The notes under the pieces were generated by a model, which was given only the letters and a program-made list of their open reading frames with translations, was not told the origin of the DNA and made no database searches. The translations under genes were made by a program, and so were the position numbers. Below are positions 4,421-5,629 of a stretch of 33,607 nt of DNA, piece after piece (position 1 is the stretch's first letter; every line of letters starts with the position of its first letter). The stretch is taken from IMG/VR virus record IMGVR_UViG_3300036790_000261, positions 88,725 to 122,331 of that record; one strand, written 5' to 3'. Source of the DNA: a virus. Its lineage: Duplodnaviria; Heunggongvirae; Uroviricota; Caudoviricetes.

Positions 4421-5629
4421 GTGACACTTTCTACTGCCTTGCTCGATCGGGAGAAGCAGTTCGCCAAAGCGTTCCGCCCGGCCGCGCTTACCGGGATCAA
4501 GCTCGACCCGCTCCAGGTCGACAAGCTGATCGAAGAGCACACCGGGGGCAGGGACGCGTCCCGGCAGCGCGCTGAGGCCCTTAGCGACGGCCAGATCACC
4601 AACCCGAAGAGCAGCACTCAGGTCGCGCCTTATCTGAGCGCTACGGGCAAGTACGAGCTGCCGCTGAGTGAGAAGACAGGTAAGCCCGGGGCGCCGAAGG
4701 GCGCACTGGAGGTTTACAGCTACCTCGGTGACGAGCTGGCCCAGGCGCTCCTGGAGTACCGCCGGCATGACACCGCGCTGGGCTTGCTGCTGGAGCCGCG
4801 CCGGGAGCTAATCACTCACGGCGACGGCCGGGTGCGAACAAGCATCCTAACTTTGGCCGCGAACACGGGCAGGACTAGCAGTCGTAATGAGAATCTCCAG
4901 CAGATTAGCCGCCAGGGCGGGATGCGGGCGACGCACCTGGCGGAGGACGGCTGCCTGATCATCTCGGCGGACTTCAGCTCGGTGGAGGTGCGGGTCGGGG
5001 CGGCGCTCTCGGGTGACTTGTCGATGAAGAACCTGATCGCGCTGCTGGACGCGTACCCGGAGAAGAAGAAGGAGTACGACTTCCACTGGCGGACCGCGAT
5101 TACCTGCTACGGCCCGGACGCGACGTACGAGAACCGGTATAACTGCAAGCGGGTGAATTTCGCGAAAATGTACGGCTCGGGCAAGAAGAGCGCCGCCGGC
5201 CAGGTCGGCATCCCGCTTCCTGAGGTGTCCCGGGCGTTCGACGCGTTTGACGCGGTCGCGCCGCAGTACAAGGTGTGGGACCAGTGGATGCGCGACTCGG
5301 TGCGTAACGGGATGAAGTCGTTCCCGACGTACAGCGGCCGGGATATCTGGCTGACCGGGAAGGGCGAGCACGCCGCCGGGAATGCCGCCATTCAGGGCAC
5401 CGCAAGGGAGTTCCTGGTGGACGCGGTCGCGAAATGGGAAAAGGGCCGGTGGGGCGGTCACGTGCTCGTTCCGGTGCATGATGAACTGATCTGCTTTGAC
5501 GTGCCGGAGGCCGAGGCGGAGGCGGCGACCGCGTTCCTGATTGACTGCATGGAAGTGCCTGATTTCATGGGCGTGCGCATCGCTGCGGAGGCTAACCAGC
5601 CCAGCAAGTTCTGGATGGACGCCAGCTAG
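4421..5629 (+). CDS. Family A DNA polymerase, polymerase domain only (separated from its exonuclease half)
   Basis: TGRTSS..NLQQ, motif A ISADFSSVEVRV, motif B CKRVNFAKMYG, NAAIQGTA and motif C VPVHDELI. GTG start with AGGA 8 nt upstream. Confidence 0.93.
   Translation: MTLSTALLDREKQFAKAFRPAALTGIKLDPLQVDKLIEEHTGGRDASRQRAEALSDGQITNPKSSTQVAPYLSATGKYELPLSEKTGKPGAPKGALEVYSYLGDELAQALLEYRRHDTALGLLLEPRRELITHGDGRVRTSILTLAANTGRTSSRNENLQQISRQGGMRATHLAEDGCLIISADFSSVEVRVGAALSGDLSMKNLIALLDAYPEKKKEYDFHWRTAITCYGPDATYENRYNCKRVNFAKMYGSGKKSAAGQVGIPLPEVSRAFDAFDAVAPQYKVWDQWMRDSVRNGMKSFPTYSGRDIWLTGKGEHAAGNAAIQGTAREFLVDAVAKWEKGRWGGHVLVPVHDELICFDVPEAEAEAATAFLIDCMEVPDFMGVRIAAEANQPSKFWMDAS

Follow-up and report, generated by a model that had tools for sequence, protein, structure and literature searches.

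An AGY-scaffold VIPR locus in a phage genome, with guides that match the replication genes of related phages

The Viral Interference Programmable Repeat (VIPR), first described in 2026, is a CRISPR-related RNA-guided DNA-binding system (bioRxiv 10.64898/2026.04.26.720920). According to this preprint and two further ones (bioRxiv 10.64898/2026.04.26.720927 and 10.64898/2026.10.15.759431; together, the VIPR preprints), its parts are a small RAMP protein (Vipr) with an RRM core, a glycine-rich loop and a thumb, vrRNAs of 9-16 YNNGG pentamers, and an accessory gene (vap). The two variable bases (NN) of each pentamer base-pair with NNx in double-stranded DNA, on one strand or the other, and the skipped base usually lies at a wobble position. 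Here a locus is described that, judged from its sequence, belongs to this system as an unusual variant. It lies in a window of 33,607 nucleotides (the whole stretch of DNA analysed), which is the right-hand 33.6 kb of the 122,331-bp IMG/VR virus record IMGVR_UViG_3300036790_000261. The analysis centres on U8, one of eight guide units of this locus, which is very probably a vrRNA gene of a phage-borne VIPR acting in inter-phage interference, directed at the polymerase gene of co-infecting relatives.

Natural VIPR targets are found in competing phages and satellites. A target is defined as an NN match of at least 80%, no self hits that high are reported, and the published phage-borne VIPRs silence rather than cut (VIPR preprints). 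Cryo-electron microscopy (cryo-EM) shows one protomer per repeat, with five RNA bases to three DNA bases. In the structure from Escherichia phage SUSP1, the constant GGY trinucleotide is read base by base: G1 is held by H17 and D177, G2 by R138 and W178, and Y3 by R179 and other residues. The SUSP1 clade also possesses a conserved structured 3' tail, a pseudoknot. The VIPRs tested belong to enterobacterial and Pseudomonas phages and have the GGY scaffold, while the Methods for classification allow 'YNNNG' variants. The listed vaps encode HNH, helicase, winged-helix or helix-turn-helix (HTH) proteins, with nucleases only in the host-borne types III and V (VIPR preprints).

The cassette in the window occupies positions 2672-4420 on the plus strand and comprises eight vrRNA units, a vipr gene (3549-4193) and an accessory gene of T5orf172 type (3046-3543). 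The left array (2672-3045) contains five units, U1 (2682-2756), U2 (2775-2809), U3 (2828-2887), U4 (2903-2967) and U5 (2983-3038), and the right array (4194-4420) contains U6 (4198-4258), U7 (4278-4327) and U8 (4351-4410). Both non-coding stretches carry AG at each fifth base, on the plus strand only, and this pattern is found in no second place in the window or in the 122-kb genome. Each unit consists of 7-15 YNNAG pentamers, and most units end in a short conserved tail, G-R-W-T-T-A-C. Of the 86 pentamers of the window, 93% begin with a pyrimidine, 91% have A as the fourth base and 98% end in G, and base use at positions 2-3 is close to uniform. Tandem pentamer units flanking vipr are also present in seven related contigs, and the 489 pentamers of window and contigs together give the same logo (Y 93%, N, N, A 91%, G 97%). 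Position 4 is G in just 2-5% of these 489, so that the GGY (YNNGG) scaffold of VIPR is replaced here by AGY. Arrays are located beside vipr in all relatives, and their content is unrelated amongst close relatives, even where the Vipr proteins are 96% identical. The closest relative of the window, L011, shares a single unit with it, U5 (487-554 in that contig), which lies just upstream of the T5orf172 open reading frame (ORF); all other units differ. A search of the units against Rfam, hammerhead ribozymes included, gave no match.

The vipr gene encodes a RAMP/Cas7-like protein of 214 amino acids with a C-terminal glycine-rich loop (PHROG 4652). A profile built from 12 sequences, this protein and 11 homologs, matches the PDB entry 36pp_D, 'SUSP1 Vipr protein', with an E value of 9.3e-13 (residues 11-207 against 5-190), and the AlphaFold2 (AF2) model of the protein (pLDDT 79) matches Csm3 and the type VII Cas7 backbone subunits with a probability of 1.00. 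The invariant loop G-x-G-N-A-R-K-L-G-H-G-R-F is present. In the profile alignment, SUSP1 residues H17 and D177 correspond to N23 and N198, which are invariant in the 12 sequences; the arginines R138 and R179 are conserved (R159 and R200), and A199 takes the place of W178. Had the trinucleotide changed at its first base alone, this pattern would be expected.

The pairing code was examined with 31 guides. Matches of at least 80% are obtained for four of them with a one-nucleotide skip on pentamer positions 2-3 and for none under the alternatives scored, which were skips of 0 and 2 nucleotides and the others of the four possible position pairs. All ten aligned guide-target matches fall on codon positions 1-2, three in sense and seven in antisense orientation, and the existence of antisense matches excludes translation. 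An amino-acid-level relation or quintuplet decoding, considered for the synonymous Arg, Ser and Leu family switches seen at mismatches, was dropped, as there are about three such cases among about thirty mismatches, near chance. The assignment of the locus to VIPR, as an unusual member, thus follows from the SUSP1 Vipr profile match, the Cas7/Csm3-type model, the specificity for a one-nucleotide skip and the codon-register matches.

U8 comprises 12 YNNAG pentamers (60 bases), and its NN string is complementary to the coding strand of the polymerase gene that forms the right flank of the cassette. This ORF (4421-5629, plus strand) encodes 402 amino acids with a PolA polymerase domain (Pfam DNA_pol_A, 1e-41) and has about 55 homologs of about 400 amino acids; the tail of U8 (4411-4420) doubles as its ribosome-binding region. 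The reverse complement of pentamer positions 2-3 of U8 reads AA GG GT CT GA CC TA GC TA AC GG GA, and the window at 4697-4732 (plus strand) reads AAG GGC GCA CTG GAG GTT TAC AGC TAC CTC GGT GAC, encoding KGALEVYSYLGD, so that 8/12 dinucleotides are the same. The site is in frame with the polymerase ORF (4697-4421 = 276 = 3 x 92). A reading of the letters without database searches (the sequence-only reading) had proposed this match, and rescoring upholds it: 8/12 is the unique best site on either strand, both in the window, where the next best is 6/12, and in the whole record. The window P values are 0.005 and 0.007 in shuffles of the dinucleotide order and 0.002 in pooled draws, and the genome-wide P value is 0.015 (dinucleotide-order shuffle). 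The own-genome match of U8 is therefore more than chance, though taken alone moderately so.

A second near-match lies on the other side of the cassette. The left flank is an ORF (164-2671, plus strand) for a D5-type primase/helicase fused to a PolA 3'-5' exonuclease domain (amino acids 654-823; Pfam D5_N 2e-20, DNA_pol_A_exo1 8e-8). U1 matches it in the sense orientation and in frame at 2174-2218 (plus strand; RMHEFYRLRLVQLGN), with 9/14 dinucleotides, or 10/15 with one more pentamer (P < 0.001 in the window and 0.0025 genome-wide). The sequence-only reading had placed the targets of the two outer guides about 450 bp left and 280 bp right of the insertion, on opposite strands, and had held two such in-register matches to be unlikely by chance. 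Both statements agree with the measured distances (454-495 bp left of 2672 and 277-312 bp right of 4420) and with the genome-wide shuffle values of U1 and U8. No guide reaches 80% on its own genome, the self matches being 61-69%. At 2195-2215, within the resident U1 site, the codons are CTA AGG CTT GTA CAG CTA GGG, an uncommon choice at the genome's GC content of about 65%, and relatives have CTG CGG CTG GTG CAG CTC GGC. One of the U1 mismatches is a switch of Arg codon family (AGG against CG in the guide), and a codon-family switch is the only kind of synonymous change able to escape a wobble-skipping code. Accelerated divergence of the resident U8 site was also considered and rejected: 3/12 residues differ from a 90%-identical relative, which is not significant (binomial about 0.11).

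Better matches are found in related phages. At the homologous polymerase site, U8 scores 11/12 in six relatives (L011, L015, L016, L017, G001 and L025) and 10/12 in three (L009, L013 and L014). The peptide compatible with an 11/12 match, KGVLEPYAYLGD, is encoded in 20/118 polymerase homologs. With the U8 pattern relaxed at its single mismatching dinucleotide, one IMG/VR contig (L018, within G001) and one JGI contig (L025) were retrieved. U1 scores 14/15 in G001 and 12/15 in L010 and L015. The same tendency is seen in the guides of relatives: the score of unit 6 of L007 rises from 8/13 on the polymerase gene of L007 itself to 11/13 on this window, L010, L013 and G001, and unit 1 of L007 scores 11/18 both on itself and on this window and 13/18 in L009, L010 and G001. 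As percentages, U8 reaches 92% and U1 80-93% in relatives, unit 6 of L007 85% and unit 3 of L011 80%. Wherever both were scored, the best non-self match is at least equal to the self match, and it is higher in all cases but unit 1 of L007 against this window. Shuffles never gave scores as high as the 11/12, 14/15 and 11/13 seen at homologous sites of independent genomes. The resident 8/12 site is probably not acted on, because 67% is below the 80% NN threshold of the VIPR authors. The resident near-match of U8 is therefore the homolog, or "homology shadow", of a non-self target, the phage's own copy differing at the recognised bases.

The cassette lies at a junction between two genes whose content varies amongst relatives. 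The window carries it there, as do eight related contigs (L007-L014), which keep the gene order exonuclease, array, T5orf172 ORF, vipr, array, polymerase. In L015, L016 and L017, whose polymerase homologs were retrieved without reference to Vipr, the exonuclease-bearing and polymerase ORFs overlap directly with nothing between them, and the JGI contig L025 also has an empty junction. G001 has other cargo at this place, without VIPR: a 317-amino-acid ORF without Pfam match, a ParB_N-DUF5131 protein and a Tad2-like (Thoeris anti-defence) protein (L018 3435-6040; G001 about 101.4-104.2 kb). The junction is a hotspot for accessory genes. Since the same order and arrays recur in contigs from NCBI, ENA, JGI and Logan, a recent insertion or an assembly artefact was rejected. 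The cassette had been taken for an insert between two polymerase halves. Its presence or absence at one junction supports this in part, but no continuous gene is broken, as the two ORFs are already separate and overlapping in the cassette-free relatives; the polymerase is naturally split in this clade.

Two full genomes, G000 (the phage's own) and G001 (a 117-kb IMG/VR relative, reached via L018), were scanned without positional bias. In G000, five of the seven guide hits better than shuffles are no more than about 500 bp from the junction (U1, U8, units 1 and 6 of L007 and unit 1 of L011), and in G001 all four do; these flanks make up about 0.8% of each genome. The U1 site of G001 is 471 bp left of the junction and its U8 site 276 bp right, on opposite strands. 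In the insert-free allele of L015 the two sites are 0.82 kb apart, again on opposite strands, close to the 0.8 kb proposed by the sequence-only reading. That genomes matched by U1 should also be matched by U8 and lack the insert applies to G001 (14/15 and 11/12) and L015 (12/15 and 11/12); the U8 target is not limited to insert-free genomes, however, because the cassette-bearing L011 matches 11/12 as well. The remaining two hits in G000 are U4 (9/13, genome-wide P 0.005) and unit 3 of L011 (8/10), located 240 bp apart outside the window, at genome positions 38833-38871 and 39076-39105 (L006 4834-4872 and 5077-5106), antisense and in codon register. They lie in a gene of 1626 amino acids with PHROG hits to tail length tape measure proteins, 50 kb from the cassette. 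The U4 pattern was not found in G001 with up to 3 mismatches. The search of U2 to U7 on both strands, proposed earlier, thus gave a match for U4, while for U2, U3, U5, U6 and U7 no hit exceeded chance in G000, G001 or the related contigs.

The distribution of the cassette does not follow that of its flanks. The four VIPR-bearing rows of the polymerase tree are scattered and need four changes. Between the window and L007, Vipr is 85% identical and the polymerase 65%, while between the window and L010 the values are 53% and 71%. From this incongruence and the four tree changes it follows that the cassette moved, or was lost, repeatedly relative to its flanks. Flank identity, taken segment by segment, shows no clear gradient toward the cassette (few data), and the GC profile, with a mild dip around the cassette, is uninformative on co-conversion.

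Under the interference reading, the units would be transcribed and processed into vrRNAs, along which Vipr protomers would polymerise, one per pentamer, as in SUSP1. The protomers would hold the constant trinucleotide (AGY, not GGY) and present the two variable bases, which would leave every third base of a DNA strand, the codon wobble, unpaired and pair with the other two. U8 would then bind the polymerase gene of a rival at its 11/12 site and U1 the exonuclease motif (up to 14/15); the outcome for the rival may be that published for type II VIPR, silencing or a roadblock. The phage would spare itself because its resident copies match just 8/12 and 10/15. Several points weigh against this reading. 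In SUSP1, scaffold perturbations, including GGY to AGY, and perturbation of NN pairing are reported to abolish silencing (VIPR preprints), and for this reason an AGY scaffold would need an altered protein pocket. The units fold no better than their shuffles (z -0.8 to +1.6), and their tails are short, with no predicted structure or pseudoknot. No perfect 12/12 target of U8 was found in JGI metagenome contigs, and five of the eight window guides have no identified target in the genomes and contigs searched. Silencing the polymerase gene of a rival would also seem to do little damage in co-infection, since polymerase is a diffusible protein that works in trans.

An extension of the interference reading, not exclusive of it, is RNA-guided homing or cassette drive, which is possible but doubtful at present. 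A filament carrying U1 and U8 would mark the two sides of the empty site, the T5orf172 protein would cut or replication would stall, and repair would copy the cassette, together with its immune mismatched flanks, into the rival. The freestanding Seg and Mob homing endonucleases and transposon restoration by TnpB/IscB offer examples of comparable spread. Such drive would account for a cassette that is present or absent at exactly one junction (empty in L015, L016, L017 and L025), for the concentration of significant guide hits within about 500 bp of it (5/7 in G000 and 4/4 in G001), for the opposite strands of U1 and U8 on either side, for mismatched resident alleles, for four polymerase-tree changes with incongruent Vipr and polymerase identities, and for an accessory gene with a T5orf172 domain (GIY-YIG superfamily). 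The nuclease activity of T5orf172 is a candidate activity, however, and the GIY-YIG fold match is weak; published phage-borne VIPRs do not cut; U4 and unit 3 of L011 aim at a tape-measure gene 50 kb away; and U8 also matches L011, which has the cassette. The unrelated cargo of G001 indicates that the junction may simply be an accessory-gene hotspot, and co-conversion finds no clear gradient of flank identity to indicate it.

Two other explanations concern the matches themselves. In autoregulation, the partial self matches of U1 and U8 would let VIPR bind weakly and tune its own exonuclease and polymerase genes. The best own-genome sites of U1, U8 and U4 are indeed real and in codon register, but non-self matches at least equal the self matches and exceed them in all but one case, the self matches stay below 80% when perturbed NN pairing is reported to abolish silencing in SUSP1, and arrays that differ wholly between relatives with 96% identical Vipr are unfit for a conserved regulatory circuit; autoregulation is accordingly improbable. 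It is still harder to believe that the arrays are not guides at all, but 5' leaders or protein-binding repeats, such as sites for a TRAP-like ring protein on NAG triplets, with the decoded matches due to chance. NAG repeats with 2-nucleotide spacers do resemble TRAP sites, and a Shine-Dalgarno-like AGGA and then TTAC close every unit, two of these tails preceding real start codons. Against this stand the matches in independent genomes that shuffles never gave, their restriction to one skip length and one position pair, and an adjacent gene that is a Vipr homolog. A TRAP-like site, a translational leader and a decaying microsatellite were each rejected on Vipr homology, skip specificity and the shuffle results. 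Inter-phage interference is thus retained as the preferred reading of U8.

The accessory gene (3046-3543, plus strand), which is vap-like, encodes 165 amino acids with an N-terminal T5orf172 domain (Pfam T5orf172, 1.6e-8) and a long C-terminal helix. An ORF of like size and position upstream of vipr is present in the contig of P0006 and in the six contigs that extend to that side (L007-L012). Identity among the six translated copies is 37-96%, and Y6, K18, G20, R28 and E72 are conserved in six homologs. The model of the protein has a pLDDT of 79, and its best PDB fold match is the GIY-YIG nuclease Slx1, a weak one (probability 0.89, E 0.17). A vap of T5orf172 type was not found in the text of the VIPR papers, their supplementary tables lying outside the search.

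Some further features are seen in the neighbourhood of the polymerase gene. In L009 (4472-6706) the polymerase ORF has 744 amino acids, and its PolA match falls in two stretches parted by about 340 residues without counterpart in the window polymerase; these may be an intein or an inserted domain. A 48-amino-acid ORF lies between the right array and the polymerase gene in L009 and L014. In L007 (4085-6491, minus strand), PTH2, a KTI12/PNKP-like kinase-phosphatase and a T4 Rnl1-type RNA ligase are located beside the polymerase gene and look like an RNA-repair module. The host range of these phages is probably actinobacterial. Comparison of the locus with GenBank phages by megablast and a scan of IMG/VR with the polymerase each gave no match.

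The locus is of interest in several respects. A natural AGY scaffold together with Asn at exactly the two G1-reading residues offers a ready test of how the scaffold is read, and possibly an orthogonal VIPR for engineering. The locus is also a virus-borne VIPR with a partner of T5orf172 type (GIY-YIG superfamily), though nucleases are published only for host-borne types. Its guides aim at replication genes of sister phages, the phage's own copies having diverged at the recognised bases. Guides on both sides of the empty site of a patchy cassette make RNA-guided homing directly testable. Homing, if true, would join Cas7-type RNA-guided recognition with the selfish spread typical of phage homing endonucleases; should it fail, the published role in inter-phage conflict would still be cleanly exemplified here, with good replication.

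The searchable text of the VIPR papers, from which the supplementary tables are excluded, yielded no mention of three of these features: an AGY scaffold accompanied by corresponding changes in the protein, targeting of sister-phage replication genes, and guides that bracket the empty site of their own cassette. The closest described system is the type II VIPR of Escherichia phage SUSP1 and a Pseudomonas fulva prophage. Both it and the present locus are virus-borne and have a RAMP-type Vipr homolog and one adjacent accessory gene. They also share intergenic arrays on both sides of the genes (with 7-15 pentamers here), two hypervariable bases per pentamer, a wobble-aligned code with a one-nucleotide skip on either strand, targets in competing viral elements and self matches below 80%. 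The present locus differs in having AGY (A 91%) rather than GGY, with Asn at both G1-reading residues, a short GRWTTAC tail without predicted pseudoknot, and an accessory gene of T5orf172 type. Its targets are essential replication genes of sister phages beside the insertion site of the cassette, whereas those of the type II systems are a satellite or prophage regulators.

Class 1 CRISPR systems resemble the locus in the fold of the 214-amino-acid protein, which is that of Cas7/Csm3 with its glycine-rich loop and thumb; no repeat-spacer array and no other cas genes are present here, and the guide is gapped, using 2 of 5 bases and not 5 of 6. The freestanding GIY-YIG Seg and HNH-type Mob endonucleases of T4-like phages carry out intronless homing. 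Common to them and the present locus are a small patchy cassette between two conserved genes, recognition sites a few hundred bp off in the neighbouring gene of cassette-free genomes, a diverged resident site and, in the accessory protein here, a domain of the GIY-YIG superfamily. Recognition here would differ, being made by RNA guides and a Cas7-like filament and not by the DNA-binding domain of the nuclease itself, with cleavage and co-conversion as putative steps. In the TnpB/IscB (OMEGA) systems, guide RNAs target the transposon-free site and promote retention of the element. A mobile cassette with guides against the sequence of the element-free site is a property shared with the present locus. 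The proteins are unrelated, however, and OMEGA has a contiguous guide fixed by the element end and a nuclease built into the effector, whereas the locus described here carries a diverse array.

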